A stretch of 64,000 bases of DNA from Acidobacteriota bacterium (GTDB lineage: Bacteria; Acidobacteriota; Vicinamibacteria; Vicinamibacterales; CAVVIG01), in NCBI GenBank assembly GCA_020850715.1, contig JADZED010000080.1, positions 4,524-68,523 on the forward strand, given 5' to 3'. Under the pieces are notes generated by a model, which was not told where the DNA came from, did no database searches, and worked only from the letters and a program-made list of their open reading frames with translations. A program made the position numbers and the translations under genes. Within the stretch, counting starts at the first letter, position 1. The number at the start of each line of letters is the position of its first letter. Below are positions 37,630 through 54,409 of the stretch, in pieces.

Positions 37630-38484
37630 TTATCTCAGGGTGAACGAGCCGGAATCGACGACTGCGCCGGTGTCCGAGATGGCCTCGAAGCTCAGCACCC
37701 CGCCGGCGAGCTCGACGAGCATGAAGTGGTTTCCGGTATCGAACGCCTTCGCCGTGAGCGCCGACGCCTCGATGTCGCCCTTCCGCAGCTTCGCCGCGCC
37801 TCCCGACACGAAGTAGTAGATCCCCTTCTGCGGCTTGATGCGTTCATAGACGTGATCGTGCCCTGCGAAGACCACGTCGACGCCGTACTTCAGGAGCAGC
37901 GGCTCGACCTGCGCGCGCAGCGCAAGATCGGACCCGTGGCGGCCGGCCGACGAGTAGAGCGGGTGGTGAAAGAAACAGATCTTCCAGTCCGATCCGCTGT
38001 CGGCGAGAGCCTTCTCGAACCAGTCGAGCTGCGCCCGATCCATGGCGTTGCTGTCGAGCGCGAAGATCCGGACGCCCGGCTGCGGCCGGAACGAGTAATA
38101 GCGCTCGCCGTTCATGTTGAAGCCCTTGTAGAAGCGCTCCTTCGGATCGTCGTGGTTGCCCAGCGCTGCGTAGAACCTCACGCCGGCGTCGAGCATCGGT
38201 TTGTAGGGAATCTCGAACGCCTTCCGATAGTCCTCCCGGTCGCTGCCAATGTAGAGGTTGTCGCCCAGCATCAGCACGAGCTCGTAGTGAAACGACCGGC
38301 GCGCGTCGGCGAGCGCTTTCGCGACCCGATACTGGGCCGGACCGCCGGTGCCGCTGTCGCCGATCACGGCGAACTTGAGGGAACCTTCCTGGTCGGGCAG
38401 GGTTGCTGGTGCGCCCGCGAGGCCGGCGGCGACGATCGACGCCACGAGCAGGACGAGCAGGTGAGACGTATGGCGGCAGCGCAT
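37630..38484 (-). CDS. secreted calcineurin-like metallophosphoesterase
   Basis: Signal peptide. Motifs GDSGTG, GDNLY, GNHD, FFHHP, GHDHVYER. Confidence 0.88.
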   Translation of the reverse strand: MRCRHTSHLLVLLVASIVAAGLAGAPATLPDQEGSLKFAVIGDSGTGGPAQYRVAKALADARRSFHYELVLMLGDNLYIGSDREDYRKAFEIPYKPMLDAGVRFYAALGNHDDPKERFYKGFNMNGERYYSFRPQPGVRIFALDSNAMDRAQLDWFEKALADSGSDWKICFFHHPLYSSAGRHGSDLALRAQVEPLLLKYGVDVVFAGHDHVYERIKPQKGIYYFVSGGAAKLRKGDIEASALTAKAFDTGNHFMLVELAGGVLSFEAISDTGAVVDSGSFTLR

Positions 38485-38654
38485 GGGGCGACCTCTCTCC
38501 CGGGGGGGGGGCGCTGGCAGGTGACCGCCGATCAGGGTAGCACGCGTCGCCGGGGGAGCGGGGCATCCTGACCGCCGGGGTGAAGGGCCGGCGGCAGGCG
38601 GACAGCGGGGACGAGGAGCGGCGCCCCGGCCGGGCAGCGGATCGGGCCACGAGA

Positions 38655-38834
38655 GTGGACCGCGCTCGCTGAAGTACCACCACTGGGACTACTACGGGCG
38701 GCGGCGGCGAAGGGGTGCCACCGCCGGGCGCCGGGCCGGCAGCCGTGACACGCGTTCTTCGGCGGGCACCCGGTGGGGCTGCTCGCGAAGAGAACCCTGC
38801 GCTCTGCGGTGCTGATTCAGCCGGGACGGTCCAC
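38655..38834 (+). repeat. copy A of a conserved about 180-nt intergenic element (candidate structured RNA or MITE-like repeat)
   Basis: Aligns with 54236-54409. Identical blocks GCTCGCTGAAGTACCACCAC (20 nt), ACGCGTTCTTCGGCGGGCA (19 nt), CCGGTGGGGCTG (12 nt). Termini GTGGACCG...CGGTCCAC are complementary. Confidence 0.8.
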
Positions 38835-38846
38835 TAGAATACAGGG

Positions 38847-40739
38847 ATGCGCAGACATCCTTCGTGCCTCCGGTCCATCGTCGCGGCGGTCCTGGTGGCC
38901 GCAGTCGGGCTCGGCGTCGCGGCGCAGGAACGCGACCGCGCCAGGATTCCCGACAAGTACAAGTGGAATCTCGCCGACATCTATCCCGACGACGCGGCGT
39001 GGCGCGCCGCCAAAGAGAAGACGGCGGGCGAGATCGGCGGGCTGAAATCGTACCAGGGCAGACTCGCGTCGTCGGCCCAGGTCCTCGCCGACGCGCTCGA
39101 GAGGATGTCGGCGCTCGACAAGGCGCTGTCGCGCGAGTACGTCTACGCGAGCCTGCTGGCGGATCAGGACACGCGCGATGCCGCCCGGCAGGGCATGAAG
39201 CAGGAAATGGTGCAGCTGTACTCGACCTTCGCGGCGCAGGCTGCGTTCATCGAGCCCGAGGTGCTGAAGGCGGATCGCGCGACGATCGATCGCTTCGTCG
39301 CCTCCGAGCCGCGGCTCGCCGTGTACAAGTTCTATCTGGCCGACATCGCGCGCCGCGCGGCGCACACGCTCAGCGAGCCGGAAGAGAAGCTGCTCGCGAG
39401 CGCCGGGCCCCTGGCGGGCGCCTCGTCGGACGCCTACAACATCCTGGCGAACGCCGACTTCCCCTATCCGACGATCACGCTGAGCGACGGCAAGCCGCAC
39501 AAGATCGATCAGGCGGCCTACGCCGATCTGCGCGCGCTGCCCGATCGCGGCGACCGGCAGAAGGTGATGTCGTCGTTCTTCGATGCGCTCGGCGGCTTCA
39601 GCGGCACGTTCGGCACGACGATGAGCGGCGAGGTGCAGAAGGTGCGCTTCTACGCGAATGCGCGGAAGTATCCGTCCGATCTTGCGCTCGCGCTCGACGG
39701 TCCGAACATCCCGCTCTCGGTCTACACGCGTCTGGTCGAAGGCGTGAACCGGAACCTGCCGGCCTTCCACCGCTACCTCCAGCTGCGCAGGCGGATGATG
39801 GGCGTCTCCGAGCTGCACTACTACGATCTCTACGCGCCGCTGGTCGATTCGGTGAAGCTCGAGTACACGCCGGAGGAGGCCGAGCAGCACGTGCTTGCCG
39901 CGATGAAGCCCCTGGGCGACGAGTACGTGACCACGCTGAAGAAGGCGTTCGACGAACGCTGGATCGATCTGCTGCCGAGCGAGGGCAAGCGATCCGGCGC
40001 CTACTCGGACGGCGGCGCGTACGACGTCCATCCCTACATGCTGATCAATTTCAACGGCAAGTACGCCGACGTCAGCACGCTTGCGCACGAGCTCGGGCAC
40101 ACGATGCAGAGCTACTTCTCCAACAAGGCGCAGCCGTACCCGCTGGCGAACTATCCGATCTTCGTCGCCGAGGTGGCATCCACCTTCAACGAGTCGCTGC
40201 TGATCGACCACATGCTGGCGAGCATCGACGACGACGACGCGCGGCTGTCGCTGCTGGGGAACTACCTGGAGAACATCAAGGGCACCGTGTTCCGCCAGGC
40301 GCAGTTCGCGGAGTTCGAGCTGAAGATGCACGAAATGGCGGAGAAGGGGCAGCCGATTGTCGGCGACGCGCTCGCGAAGCTGTACCTGGACATCACCCGG
40401 CGCTACTACGGCAGCGATCAAGGCGTCTGCATCGTGGACGACTACATCCAGCACGAGTGGAGCTACATCCCCCACTTTTACCGCGACTTCTACGTCTATC
40501 AGTACGCAACCTCGTTCACGGCGTCGCTGGCGCTGGCCGAGAAGGTGAAGTCGGGCGACGCGGCCGCCACCAGGCGCTACCTCGATTTCCTGCACGCCGG
40601 CGGATCGAAGTACCCGATCGACCTCTTGAAGGAGGCGGGCGTCGACATGACGACCGACGAGCCGCTGGAGCTGACGGTGAAGGCGATGAACCGGGTGATG
40701 GACGAGATGGAGCAGATCCTGGCGAAGAAGGGGAAGTAG
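38847..40739 (+). CDS. pepF: secreted M3B oligoendopeptidase F
   Basis: Signal peptide SIVAAVLVAAVGLGVAAQ. HELGH zinc motif. About 630 aa, typical for PepF. TAGAAT box 6 nt upstream of the ATG. Confidence 0.88.
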   Translation: MRRHPSCLRSIVAAVLVAAVGLGVAAQERDRARIPDKYKWNLADIYPDDAAWRAAKEKTAGEIGGLKSYQGRLASSAQVLADALERMSALDKALSREYVYASLLADQDTRDAARQGMKQEMVQLYSTFAAQAAFIEPEVLKADRATIDRFVASEPRLAVYKFYLADIARRAAHTLSEPEEKLLASAGPLAGASSDAYNILANADFPYPTITLSDGKPHKIDQAAYADLRALPDRGDRQKVMSSFFDALGGFSGTFGTTMSGEVQKVRFYANARKYPSDLALALDGPNIPLSVYTRLVEGVNRNLPAFHRYLQLRRRMMGVSELHYYDLYAPLVDSVKLEYTPEEAEQHVLAAMKPLGDEYVTTLKKAFDERWIDLLPSEGKRSGAYSDGGAYDVHPYMLINFNGKYADVSTLAHELGHTMQSYFSNKAQPYPLANYPIFVAEVASTFNESLLIDHMLASIDDDDARLSLLGNYLENIKGTVFRQAQFAEFELKMHEMAEKGQPIVGDALAKLYLDITRRYYGSDQGVCIVDDYIQHEWSYIPHFYRDFYVYQYATSFTASLALAEKVKSGDAAATRRYLDFLHAGGSKYPIDLLKEAGVDMTTDEPLELTVKAMNRVMDEMEQILAKKGK

Positions 40740-51023: not shown

Positions 51024-51791
51024 ATGGCCGGTGTGGCGCGATCGCTGCTCCTGCGGGCCGGCGTCCTGTCGCTCGCCGCGCTGTCCGCCGGATTCCAGCG
51101 CGAGGCCTATCCCCCGCACCGCAGCGACGTCGAGTACGACGGCCGCTTCACCTTCGTCCGCGCGCGCTGGGGCGCCGACGGCAGCGGCCGAGGACGGCGC
51201 GGCGGCTGGAGCGCCGCCTGGAACCACGACTATCCGCGGGCCGAACAGAACTTCCTGCTGATCCTGCGGGAGCTGACGTCGATCGACGTCCGCACCGACG
51301 GCAGCCGCATCCTGTCGCTCGACGATCCCGAGCTGTTCAAGTACCCGATCGTCTTCATGTGGGAGCCCGGCTTCTGGACGCTCACCGATGCGGAGGCCGT
51401 TTCGCTCCGCGTCTACCTGCAGAAGGGGGGCTTCGCGGTCTTCGAGGACTTCGACGGCCCGCAGCAGTGGCGCGTCTTCGCGGCGAACATGCAGCGGGTG
51501 CTGCCGGGCGCGCGCTTCGAGCAGCTCGACGGCGCCCATCGCATCTTCGACTCGTTCTTCCGCATCGAGGACATCGACGCGATCGTCCATCCGATGAACG
51601 GGATGCGTCCGAGCTACTACGGCATCTACGAGGGCAACGATCCGTCCCGGCGTCTGATGGTGGTGGCGAACTTCGACAACGACGTGCCCGAGTACTGGGA
51701 GTGGTCCGGGCAGGGGCTGTTCCCGTTCGACGACACGAACGAGGCGTACAAGCTCGGCATAAACTACACTATCTACGGGATGACTCACTGA
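51024..51791 (+). CDS. DUF4159 domain protein with N-terminal signal/anchor
   Basis: Block FKYPIVFMWEPGFWTLTDAEAVSLRVYLQKGGFAVFEDF matches my recollection of the DUF4159 core. The stop shares its A with the ATG of the next gene. Confidence 0.65.
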   Translation: MAGVARSLLLRAGVLSLAALSAGFQREAYPPHRSDVEYDGRFTFVRARWGADGSGRGRRGGWSAAWNHDYPRAEQNFLLILRELTSIDVRTDGSRILSLDDPELFKYPIVFMWEPGFWTLTDAEAVSLRVYLQKGGFAVFEDFDGPQQWRVFAANMQRVLPGARFEQLDGAHRIFDSFFRIEDIDAIVHPMNGMRPSYYGIYEGNDPSRRLMVVANFDNDVPEYWEWSGQGLFPFDDTNEAYKLGINYTIYGMTH

Positions 51792-54076
51792 TGCGACTGC
51801 CTGCCGTGCTCTCCGCCCTCCTCTTCTCTGCCGGCGCCGCGTCGGCGCAAACGCTGGCCGCGGCCGATCCGCCGGCCGGGGCGGCGGTGCCCGGCGCCGT
51901 GATGCTCGCCGACGGCGAGACGCGGCCGGTCCTCGACGGGCGCGTCACCGACGACGCGTGGACGAAGGCGCCGCCCTACGGAACCTTCACCCAGCAGGAT
52001 CCCGACGAGGGGCAGCCGGCGAGCCAGCGGACCGAAGTGCGGATTCTGCTGGACCGCACGAACGTCTACATCGGCGTGATCTGTTACGACGACAACCCGT
52101 CGGCAATCGTGGTGAACCAGAGCCGCCGCGACGCGGATCTGAACGAGACCGACTCGATCCAGCTGATCTTCGACACCTTCCACGACAGCCAGAACGGGTT
52201 CGTGTTCGGCACCAACCCGATGGGGGTGCAGGCCGACGGCCAGGTCGCCGGCGAGGGGCAGACCAGCGGCGCCCAGCGCGGCTCCGGCTCGTTCGGCTCG
52301 GCGGGCGGCGGCGCGCAGCGCGGCGGCATCAGCGGCTTCAACGCGAACTGGGACGGCGACTGGGCGGTGGAGTCGGCGATCACCGAGCGCGGGTGGGAGG
52401 CCGAGTTCGCCATTCCGCTGCGGACGCTGCGCTACAGCCCGGGACGCGATCGCACGTGGGGGTTCAACGTCCAGCGCAATATCCGCCGGCGCAACGAACA
52501 GGCGTTCCTCGCGCCGATTCCGCGCGGCTACAACCTGTTCCGCGTCTCGCTCGCCGCGCCGCTCACGGGCCTCGATCTGCCGCAGCGGCGCGAGCTGAAG
52601 CTGGTGCCCTTCGTCTCGGCCGGCGCCGAGCGCGACTACACGACCAGCCAGTCGTTCGACGGCAGAGGGTCGGCCGGCCTCGACGTGAAGTGGGGCATCA
52701 CGCCGCAGATGACCGCCGATCTGACGATCAACACCGACTTCGCCCAGATCGAGGCCGACGACGAGCAGATCAACCTGACGCGGTTCCCGGTCTTCTTTCC
52801 CGAGAAGCGGCAGTTCTTCCTCGAGAACGCCTCGATCTTCCAGTTCGGCAACCCGCAGCAGATCGACTACTTCTTCTCGCGGCGCATCGGCCTCTCCGCC
52901 TCGGGCGTGCCGATCGACATCGTGGGCGGCGGCCGGGTGACCGGCAAGGCCGGCGGCTGGAACGTCGGCGCGATGGACATCCAGACCGAGGAGACGTTCG
53001 ACGCCCGCAGCGGCGCGCTGATCGCGCCGGCGAACAACTTCTCGGTCGCGCGGGCGCAGCGCGAGTTCGGCCGCTCGAACGTCGGCGGCATCTTCGTCAA
53101 CCGGAGCGCCACGACGCCGGCCGGGCGCTTCACCGCCTGGAACCGCGTGTACGGTCTGGACACCGCGATCCAGGTCTCCCAGAACGGCAAGCTGTTCGCC
53201 TTCGCCGGGCGCTCCGACACCGAGGGGCCGAAGGGCAGCGACTACTCCGGCCGGCTGTTCTACACCTACAGCAACCCGACCTGGGCGGTCTTCGGCGGGC
53301 ACGCGATCGTCGGCGAGCACTTCAACGCCGAGGTCGGGTTCGTGCCGCGCGTCGGGGCGCAGCGGACCGACTGGCGCATCGGGTACCAGGGGCCGGCGCT
53401 GAAGAACAGCTTCTTCCGCCGCACGTCGCCGCACACCTCGGGCTTCCTGTTCCTCGATCTCGACGGGCAGGTGCAGACCAAGTACTGGCACCTGCACTTC
53501 TTCGAGATGCAACTGCAGAACGGCGGCCGCGTCGGCTACGAGATCAACCTGAACAGCGACCGCCCGCTCGTGCCGTTCACCATTGCCGACGAGCCGGGCC
53601 GGTCGCCGGTCGTCATTCCGGCCGGCTACTATTCGTGGGCCCAGGGCATGGCGACCTTCACCTGGAACCCGAGCGCGCCGGTGTTCTGGGACGTCCGGAT
53701 TACGCACGGCAACTACTACGACGGCACGAGCGTGGGCACGCAGAGCAGCGTCGGCGCCCGCTGGGGCGATAGGTTCCGCGCCACCGTCGGCATCAACAGC
53801 GACAGCGTGGACCTGCCCTACGGCAGCTTCACCACGCTCCTGATGCCGATCAAGGCGACCTGGGCCTTCAATCCGCTGACGACGCTGGCCGCGCTCGTGC
53901 AGTACAACAACCAGACCCGGACGCTCTCGTCCAACGTGCGGCTCGCCGTGCTCGATCGCAGCGGCACCGGGCTCTTCGTCGTCTTCAACGACAAGCGCGA
54001 CACCACGCGATTCACGCCCGAGGTGCAGCTCGGGCGATCCTTCATCGTCAAGTACGCGCGGCTGTTCGATTTCTGA
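51791..54076 (+). CDS. CBM9-like/DUF5916 predicted outer-membrane protein, paralog 3
   Basis: TGATG junction with DUF4159. Signal peptide MRLPAVLSALLFSAGAASAQ. Family blocks present. C-terminal ...KYARLFDF. Confidence 0.85.
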   Translation: MRLPAVLSALLFSAGAASAQTLAAADPPAGAAVPGAVMLADGETRPVLDGRVTDDAWTKAPPYGTFTQQDPDEGQPASQRTEVRILLDRTNVYIGVICYDDNPSAIVVNQSRRDADLNETDSIQLIFDTFHDSQNGFVFGTNPMGVQADGQVAGEGQTSGAQRGSGSFGSAGGGAQRGGISGFNANWDGDWAVESAITERGWEAEFAIPLRTLRYSPGRDRTWGFNVQRNIRRRNEQAFLAPIPRGYNLFRVSLAAPLTGLDLPQRRELKLVPFVSAGAERDYTTSQSFDGRGSAGLDVKWGITPQMTADLTINTDFAQIEADDEQINLTRFPVFFPEKRQFFLENASIFQFGNPQQIDYFFSRRIGLSASGVPIDIVGGGRVTGKAGGWNVGAMDIQTEETFDARSGALIAPANNFSVARAQREFGRSNVGGIFVNRSATTPAGRFTAWNRVYGLDTAIQVSQNGKLFAFAGRSDTEGPKGSDYSGRLFYTYSNPTWAVFGGHAIVGEHFNAEVGFVPRVGAQRTDWRIGYQGPALKNSFFRRTSPHTSGFLFLDLDGQVQTKYWHLHFFEMQLQNGGRVGYEINLNSDRPLVPFTIADEPGRSPVVIPAGYYSWAQGMATFTWNPSAPVFWDVRITHGNYYDGTSVGTQSSVGARWGDRFRATVGINSDSVDLPYGSFTTLLMPIKATWAFNPLTTLAALVQYNNQTRTLSSNVRLAVLDRSGTGLFVVFNDKRDTTRFTPEVQLGRSFIVKYARLFDF

Positions 54077-54235: not shown

Positions 54236-54409
54236 GTGGACCGTGCTCGCTGAAGTACCACCACCGGGGCGACGGGTGGCCGCGAGCGGGGCGCCCCGCC
54301 GGGCGCGGAGCCGGCGCCCGTGATACGCGTTCTTCGGCGGGCAGCCGGTGGGGCTGTTCGCGGACAGGATCCGGCGCCCGGCGGTACCGATTCGGCCGGG
54401 ACAGTCCAC
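54236..54409 (+). repeat. copy B of the conserved about 175-nt intergenic element
   Basis: See copy A. The 3' half (85 nt) aligns without gaps. Lies 160 nt after the paralog-3 stop. Confidence 0.8.

Follow-up and report, generated by a model that had tools for sequence, protein, structure and literature searches.

The repeat of about 180 nt that occurs twice in the window (the whole 64,000-nt stretch of DNA that was analysed, G000:C80:4524-68523) is, with a probability of roughly 85%, a non-autonomous DNA transposon of the MITE kind with IS630-type ends. It is an undescribed, order-wide MITE family, and no paper on this element was found in the literature searched. The earlier note had offered two candidates, a structured RNA or a MITE-like repeat. 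The second is upheld by terminal repeats of the IS630 type, by the dispersal of the copies, by TA flanks in the class to which the window copies belong, by bursts in related genomes and by an empty insertion site in a related class.

Copies in the source genome and their gene context

Copy A (38655-38834, plus strand, 180 nt, scored at 63.7 bits by the covariance model presented below) and copy B (54236-54409, plus strand, 174 nt, delimited by alignment and genome search) are about 82% identical in a pairwise alignment. The edges proposed in the earlier note are exact, since GTGGACC begins at 38655 and 54236 and GTCCAC finishes at 38834 and 54409, and the long identical blocks that it named are all present in the alignment of the two copies. 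The weaker similarity that it reported further upstream (ACCGCCGGG..AGCGGNGACGA) is a chance resemblance, as 183 of 500 dinucleotide shuffles scored as well or better.

The source genome (G000) is a Vicinamibacterales assembly of 3.6 Mb in 82 contigs, with 70% GC. A search of the whole genome recovered seven full-length copies, one partial copy and three core-only copies. The full-length copies (n = 7; 174-180 nt; 77-82% identity, with E values from 1e-28 to 1e-44) are dispersed, three of them being located on C80 and one each on C58, C17, C27 and C41, and the partial copy, which corresponds to the 3' part, lies on C25. The weaker, core-only copies are found at C27:252504-252610, C82:12130-12234 and C80:72162-72257, the last of these 3.6 kb past the end of the window. 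All three are without class II arms (the arm class of the window copies, see below), and each is located 33-40 nt downstream of the stop codon of a gene on the same strand. It follows from these core-only copies that G000 received the element in more than one version.

The boundaries of the copies are abrupt: when the G000 copies were aligned together with their flanks, identity was 0.77-0.85 inside the element versus 0.21-0.33 in the flanks. The copies differ by indels whose lengths are not multiples of three, and no ORF is conserved among them, in agreement with the earlier view that the repeat is non-coding; a non-coding element of less than about 300 bp is of the size of a MITE. A local segmental duplication, or a chance similarity between GC-rich sequences, with no element identity behind it, could be envisaged for copies A and B, as they are on the same strand and just 15.6 kb apart. 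The copy census refutes this explanation and leaves it a negligible probability: five more full copies occur, one of them far away on C80 and the others on four further contigs, hundreds of related copies are present in other genomes, and the flanks of the copies are unrelated.

Copy A is located between a gene encoding a calcineurin-like metallophosphoesterase (37630-38484, minus strand) and the divergently transcribed pepF gene encoding oligopeptidase F (Peptidase_M3; 38847-40739, plus strand), the ATG of which lies 13 nt past the end of the copy. As described in the earlier note, a TAGAAT sequence (38835-38840, plus strand) and the pepF ATG at position 38847 come right after copy A. The element was also said to be devoid of a clear promoter, and a consensus scan of positions 38450-38900 indeed found no sigma-70-type site. 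The TAGAAT sequence may be a −10 box, and its distance of 6 nt from the pepF ATG would suit a leaderless transcript; the TA of this hexamer is likely the right-hand target half-site (TAg) of the insertion. The pepF product has a signal-peptide-like N-terminus (MRRHPSCLRSIVAAVLVAAVGLGVAAQ), and a Shine-Dalgarno sequence is absent from positions 38835-38870 of the window. A weak terminator-like hairpin was called on the minus strand at 38860-38845 and is probably spurious. Copy B is found 160 nt beyond the stop codon of an upstream gene encoding a DUF5916/CBM9 protein (51359-54076, plus strand), and is followed by a small ORF and, on the opposite strand, by a gene for a Na+/H+ exchanger.

Terminal arms, target sites and the probable IS630-family partner

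Each copy forms a long imperfect hairpin on both strands, composed of outer arms of about 35 nt and a core of about 105 nt. The arms are terminal inverted repeats (GTGGACCGT...ACNGTCCAC), imperfect over about 35 nt on each side, and both the complementarity of the two ends and the second helix (GCUGAAGUACC with GGUGCUGAUUCAGC) that had been noticed earlier are real. In copy A, the left arm (GTGGACCGCGCTCGCTGAAGTACC...) occupies positions 38655-38694, the core positions 38695-38801 (G000:C80:43218-43324, a match of covariance model R1) and the right arm (...GGTGCTGATTCAGCCGGGACGGTCCAC) positions 38802-38834, all read on the plus strand, the two arms being assigned as IS630-type terminal inverted repeats by alignment with the ends of IS630-family insertion sequences (IS). 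The core of copy B (54270-54376, plus strand; G000:C80:58793-58899) was matched by the same model with 100 bits. Of the seven copies, A has decayed furthest, and it contains a 6-nt insertion in the region of its left arm. When copies were folded as single sequences, the z-scores of the two strands lay between −1.7 and −3.7, values that do not discriminate at 78% GC.

A search for DDE_3 genes detected several such transposase genes in three related genomes (G118, G113, and G071), and no IS630-type transposase gene was found by this search in G000. Two IS630-family IS were delimited. The first, of 1095 bp, in G113 (L246:109-1203), is bounded by GTGGCCTGTA...TACAGGCCAC, with the end pattern GTGGCCTGTA..CTGAAT..GTA, and the second, of 1110 bp, in G118 (L247:1382-2491), is bounded by GTGGACTGTAT...ATACAGTCCAC, with the end pattern GTGGACTGTAT.AGTCA..TAAAGT. 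Their products contain HTH_23/HTH_32 and DDE_3 domains, which is the architecture of the IS630 family. The G113 IS lies in c[TA]...[TA]g, and the left flank of the G118 IS is TG rather than TA. The arms of the window element agree with these IS ends at 20 of 25 nt, as seen when the G000 right arm, in reverse complement (GTGGACTGTCCCGGCTGAATCAGTA), is set against the end of the G113 IS (GTGGCCTGTAACAGCTGAATGAGTA), and GTGG...GT is invariant in the alignment. These partner IS copies sit in genera other than that of G000. No core was found inside the G113 and G118 IS copies, and the class II element therefore combines ends of the IS630 type with a core of a different origin. A genome search for the arms in G000 found none away from the copies, except for one lone and exact 21-nt match to the left arm (GTACTCGCTGAAGTACCACCA) at C10:100245-100265, in coding-like sequence and without terminus or core, which may represent either a relic or an unexplained coincidence.

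Copies from the different genomes were grouped into arm classes by the similarity of their flanks; an arm extension by minimum free energy was dropped, as it over-calls in GC-rich DNA. The window copies belong to class II, with the ends GTGGNNYGT...CCAC. The termini of this class are flanked by TA in 13 of the 20 identifiable cases, mostly as cTA/ and /TAg (the slash marks the junction), TA representing 0.97% of the dinucleotides of G000 compared with 2.25% expected. Two class II copies, L115 and L203, are flanked by TA at both ends. In G000, target half-sites are retained at three of the seven left junctions (CTA/G) and at one or two of the seven right junctions (C/TAG). A target-site duplication, one of the features by which the earlier note proposed to recognise a MITE, is suggested by the TA flanks of class II copies elsewhere; the G000 copies show half-sites, never on both sides of one copy. 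No empty site was found for class II in the genomes compared, which are of genera other than that of G000, and the mobility of the window element is therefore deduced from the flanks of the class and from the IS ends. In class III, represented by the nzgw77 MAG, the ends are CAGGCGGTTTCATAACC, and TA is present on both sides of four of the five copies.

Class I, found in G017, G128, and other genomes, has the ends GAG...CTC, with a matched TAA or TTA beside about 17 of 19 copies. Direct evidence that this class transposes with a 3-bp TWA duplication is provided by a filled/empty pair, in which the element is present in G017 and the same site is empty in the sister species G128. The junctions read GAGAAT[TAA]-element-[TAA]GAATTAAG in G017 versus GAGAAT TAA GAATTAAG in G128. 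No autonomous partner of class I was found among the 16 DDE_Tnp_1 loci of G128, G017, G110, and G000 or among the other loci examined.

In the genus of G017 and G128, AT-rich heptamer tracts, (AATTAAG/AATTGAG)n, were observed between a stop codon and an intrinsic terminator (L069:2240-2480 in G017 and L122:225-300 in G128), the terminator being canonical, with a GC hairpin and T8. Class I elements land preferentially in these tracts in this genus, and the empty site likewise contains them. In G118, an element of class I type (GAGCACGTTGCAGAAT…ATTTCGCAACGCGCTC, enclosing a core) was noted at L245:628-823, some 0.7 kb upstream of a gene encoding an IS630-type transposase, and two arm classes are therefore present in one genome.

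We propose that an IS630-family transposase (HTH + DDE_3), supplied in trans, would recognise the arms (about 35 nt each), excise the element and reinsert it at a TA dinucleotide, most readily one inside CTAG, with duplication of the TA. A CTAG preference has been reported for IS630 itself. The GC-rich core carried between the arms does not derive from the interior of the IS, and the seven G000 copies would represent one old burst, now immobile. Their decay is even, arms, stems and apex all being 0.77-0.85 identical between copies, and, because of this even divergence and the lack of an IS630-type transposase in the genome, we consider them to be fossils.

The CTAG sequence is rare in G000, where only 472 sites, or 0.131 per kb versus 2.76 per kb expected from base composition, were counted, an under-representation of about 21-fold. 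In the C17, C80b, and C27 copies, the TAG stop codon of the upstream gene is made up of the target TA and the first G of the element, and the half-sites retained in G000 are those under other constraints, namely these TAG stops and the TAGAAT sequence of copy A. Insertion into a C-TAG stop would rebuild the stop codon in this way and would be harmless, so that the rarity of CTAG, together with this reconstruction, would explain why copies abut stop codons, in either orientation, in this genome and in relatives. The element may therefore serve as an example of harmless insertion, in which a CTAG-targeting sequence that starts with G restores the TAG stop that it enters. With regard to present effects on the host, the long hairpin may act within transcripts as a 3'-end stabiliser or as a processing site, a role that has been proposed for ERIC and Correia repeats, and, in copy A, the TAG-AAT junction possibly contributes to the pepF promoter. 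Ten of the 11 G000 copies are co-oriented with the upstream gene, which may be due to chance.

The hairpin core across Vicinamibacterales

Among relatives, only the central part of about 105 nt recurs. An alignment of 31 copies from nine genomes showed that the inverted-repeat arms around this core (GCGGGTGGCCGCGAAC...GTTCGCGGACAGGACCCGC) differ by genome. A covariance model of the core (A5, R1), built from 24 cores, detected it in 49 of 118 family genomes and in 29 of 43 genera, the number of copies in a positive genome ranging from 1 to at least 33; bursts were seen in several of them, and many of the burst copies are located at contig ends. In a phylum-wide sample of 301 genomes, core matches were confined to the order Vicinamibacterales, and the carriers found in a scan of public genomes were Vicinamibacterales/Acidobacteriota MAGs and a few oddly labelled bins. 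No exact core 22-mer was found on the viral contigs of IMG/VR, and no blastn match of the core was obtained on the plasmids of PLSDB. Over the 29 genera, the core is about 75-90% identical, the arms are unrelated, and at least three to four unrelated arm types were found around it, with differing target duplications (TA versus 3-bp TWA). The element accounts for several unusual hairpins between genes, for overlaps with stop codons and for breaks in the assemblies of MAGs of this order, features to which the literature searched had assigned no repeat family.

Two local arrangements were also observed. In a public Acidobacteriota MAG (L233), partial 3' halves of the core (…GACGCGTCGCGGACAGGACCCGCCACC…) form a local tandem array, copies elsewhere being single and dispersed, and, in G011 (L061:5560-6200), a tandem duplication of about 240 bp includes one copy of the element together with the 3' end of a gene for a small membrane protein.

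The covariation check gave strong support to the hairpin structure of the core. The data comprised 100 core matches representing 81 distinct sequences, in an alignment that was fitted to the model and between copies that are mutually related. In the core hairpin, 97.6% of the cells are paired, compared with 87.9% in shuffles and 33-47% when the partners were slid, and both sides are altered in 17 of the 28 core pairs. Covariation is strong in helices P3 and P4, one P4 pair occurring as CG in 43 sequences, GC in 29, UA in three and AU in one. Two unpaired segments are highly conserved, CCGUGAC in the apical loop of about 21 nt and the internal loop GCGCGGAG/GAGCAC, which has the potential for tandem G-A pairs. 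No covariation was found for a further helix within the apical loop.

The core is also asymmetric between its strands. Two G-U pairs are near-fixed, and, at the variable helix positions, 31 G-U cells (15 positions) were counted versus seven A-C cells (six positions), an excess that points to a possible selection on the plus-strand fold as a single strand, either RNA or ssDNA. As a counter-sign, one conserved C-A in the extended helix beside the internal loop, seen by eye, would be a G-U on the other strand. The earlier note had argued for plus-strand pairing from two U-A/U-G differences between copies A and B. These differences are as it described them; the argument itself rests on two changes in transposon-derived arms, but it is echoed family-wide by the G-U excess of the core.

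These features could be read as those of a gene: the element, or at least its core, would be a functional plus-strand structured RNA belonging to a multi-copy gene family, and its transposon features would be secondary. The covariation in P3 and P4, the near-fixed and variable G-U pairs, the conserved loops, the identity of the core over 29 genera despite unrelated arms and the sense orientation of 10 of the 11 G000 copies relative to the upstream gene are all in line with such an RNA. We nevertheless regard it as improbable, as several observations contradict it. No Rfam family matches: a search of the window against Rfam 15 gave 0 matches at the gathering score, and a search of four copies with permissive filters and E <= 10 gave nothing on the element, in keeping with the earlier failure to recognise a riboswitch or sRNA. 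No promoter or terminator signal was found at copy A, the genomes contain from 0 to at least 33 copies, with bursts and without conserved synteny, and the G000 core decays as fast as its arms. The conserved C-A mentioned above favours the opposite strand. Orientation relative to genes is random at the level of the family, with 25 sense and 21 antisense copies in co-directional intergenic regions, in a set of 131 distinct copies drawn from many genomes. Among the genes next to the core, none that would suggest a mechanism recurs; the only recurrent ones belong to paralog families identified by eye as permease-like and PQQ-dehydrogenase-like. The lack of an orientation bias, of a promoter and of a meaningful neighbour gene therefore argues against a stand-alone RNA gene, a candidate that the earlier note had put forward and that finds no support here, and a false "novel RNA gene" is removed from annotation.

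A selection on the fold of one strand would also be explained if the element were a single-strand DNA hairpin comparable to REP/REPIN or IS200/IS605 elements, with a Y1 (HUH) transposase or a RAYT recognising and mobilising it. The strand-asymmetric pairing and the conserved imperfections of the hairpin are compatible with this mechanism, and Y1_Tnp genes are present in all four burst genomes tested. However, G000 has no Y1_Tnp gene, none of the eight Y1 genes inspected in burst genomes has a core less than about 2.5 kb away, the elements have terminal inverted repeats and TA or TWA target duplications, and the window arms match the ends of IS630-family IS. To our knowledge, Y1 elements do not make target duplications. 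The absence of a link to Y1 genes, the target duplications and the IS630-type arms largely refute this mechanism, which we consider very unlikely. The element does not resemble an integron attC site either: such sites form arrays of one orientation behind cassette ORFs beside intI, the copies here are single, dispersed over contigs and found in both orientations, and, by eye, the GTGG...CCAC termini do not fit the R''/R' boxes of attC (RYYYAAC...GTTRRRY).

The MITE with IS630-type ends is the reading that we retain for the element. In its plain form, this model does not explain why the core is kept with unrelated arms, nor the compensatory changes, the conserved unpaired loops or the preference for G-U over A-C on one strand. 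IS630-type transposition goes through double-stranded DNA, and selection for the fold of one strand is therefore not expected. As a tentative extension, which we hold to be possible but rather doubtful, the core may be a functional single-stranded module, either a structured RNA or a protein-binding DNA hairpin, that has been captured repeatedly by MITEs and spread by them through the order. With the same reservation, the vehicles of such a module might be at least two unrelated DDE-transposase families, one of the IS630 type with TA duplications and the other IS5/IS1031-like with TWA duplications, in addition to further arm types. If so, a function proper to the core, and not transposition, would lie behind its conservation, its covariation, its conserved loops and the strand asymmetry of its wobble pairs.

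Comparison with known mobile and palindromic repeats

The element resembles bacterial MITEs of the IS630/Tc1-mariner type, in that it is small and non-coding, with terminal inverted repeats, a proposed insertion at TA with TA duplication and a presumed dependence on a transposase acting in trans, and in that its dispersed intergenic copies would give rise to long hairpins once transcribed. The Correia/NEMIS elements of Neisseria are an example of such TA-duplicating MITEs. It differs from IS630-type MITEs in being a separate sequence family, confined to Vicinamibacterales, in having an interior that is not a deletion derivative of an IS but a covarying 105-nt hairpin also found within unrelated arms, and in the state of the G000 copies, which are fossils without a resident transposase. 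Class I, to which the window copies do not belong, is similar to the "Tourist-like" MITEs of the IS5 family (IS1031 group) and PIF-Harbinger, through its GAG...CTC ends and its TAA/TTA duplication. We take GAG...CTC ends with a TWA duplication to be the signature of the IS5/IS1031 group, following ISfinder conventions.

REP/REPIN-RAYT systems also consist of GC-rich extragenic palindromes, often located at the 3' ends of genes and with strand-specific hairpin features, but the elements described here are much longer, have terminal inverted repeats and target duplications, and showed no association with a RAYT or other Y1 gene. The ERIC or IRU sequences of Enterobacteria are imperfect palindromes of about 100-130 nt that are conserved across genera, vary in copy number and sit in transcribed intergenic or 3' regions, where effects on mRNA stability have been proposed. 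Like them, our element is an imperfect intergenic palindrome shared by several genera in variable copy number. It has no sequence relationship with ERIC, and, unlike ERIC, its palindrome lies within lineage-specific transposon ends, target duplications can be demonstrated in the family and the type of its partner IS is identified.

MITE families mostly keep their ends, and it is their interior that drifts. Here, the situation is reversed, as a covarying hairpin core with conserved loops is kept in at least 29 genera and the transposon ends around it are exchanged for others of unrelated type. Should the core be functional, it would be a clear example, among bacteria, of a structured module disseminated by several families of transposons, and would open a way into the biology of RNA or ssDNA in a large soil lineage that is uncultured.
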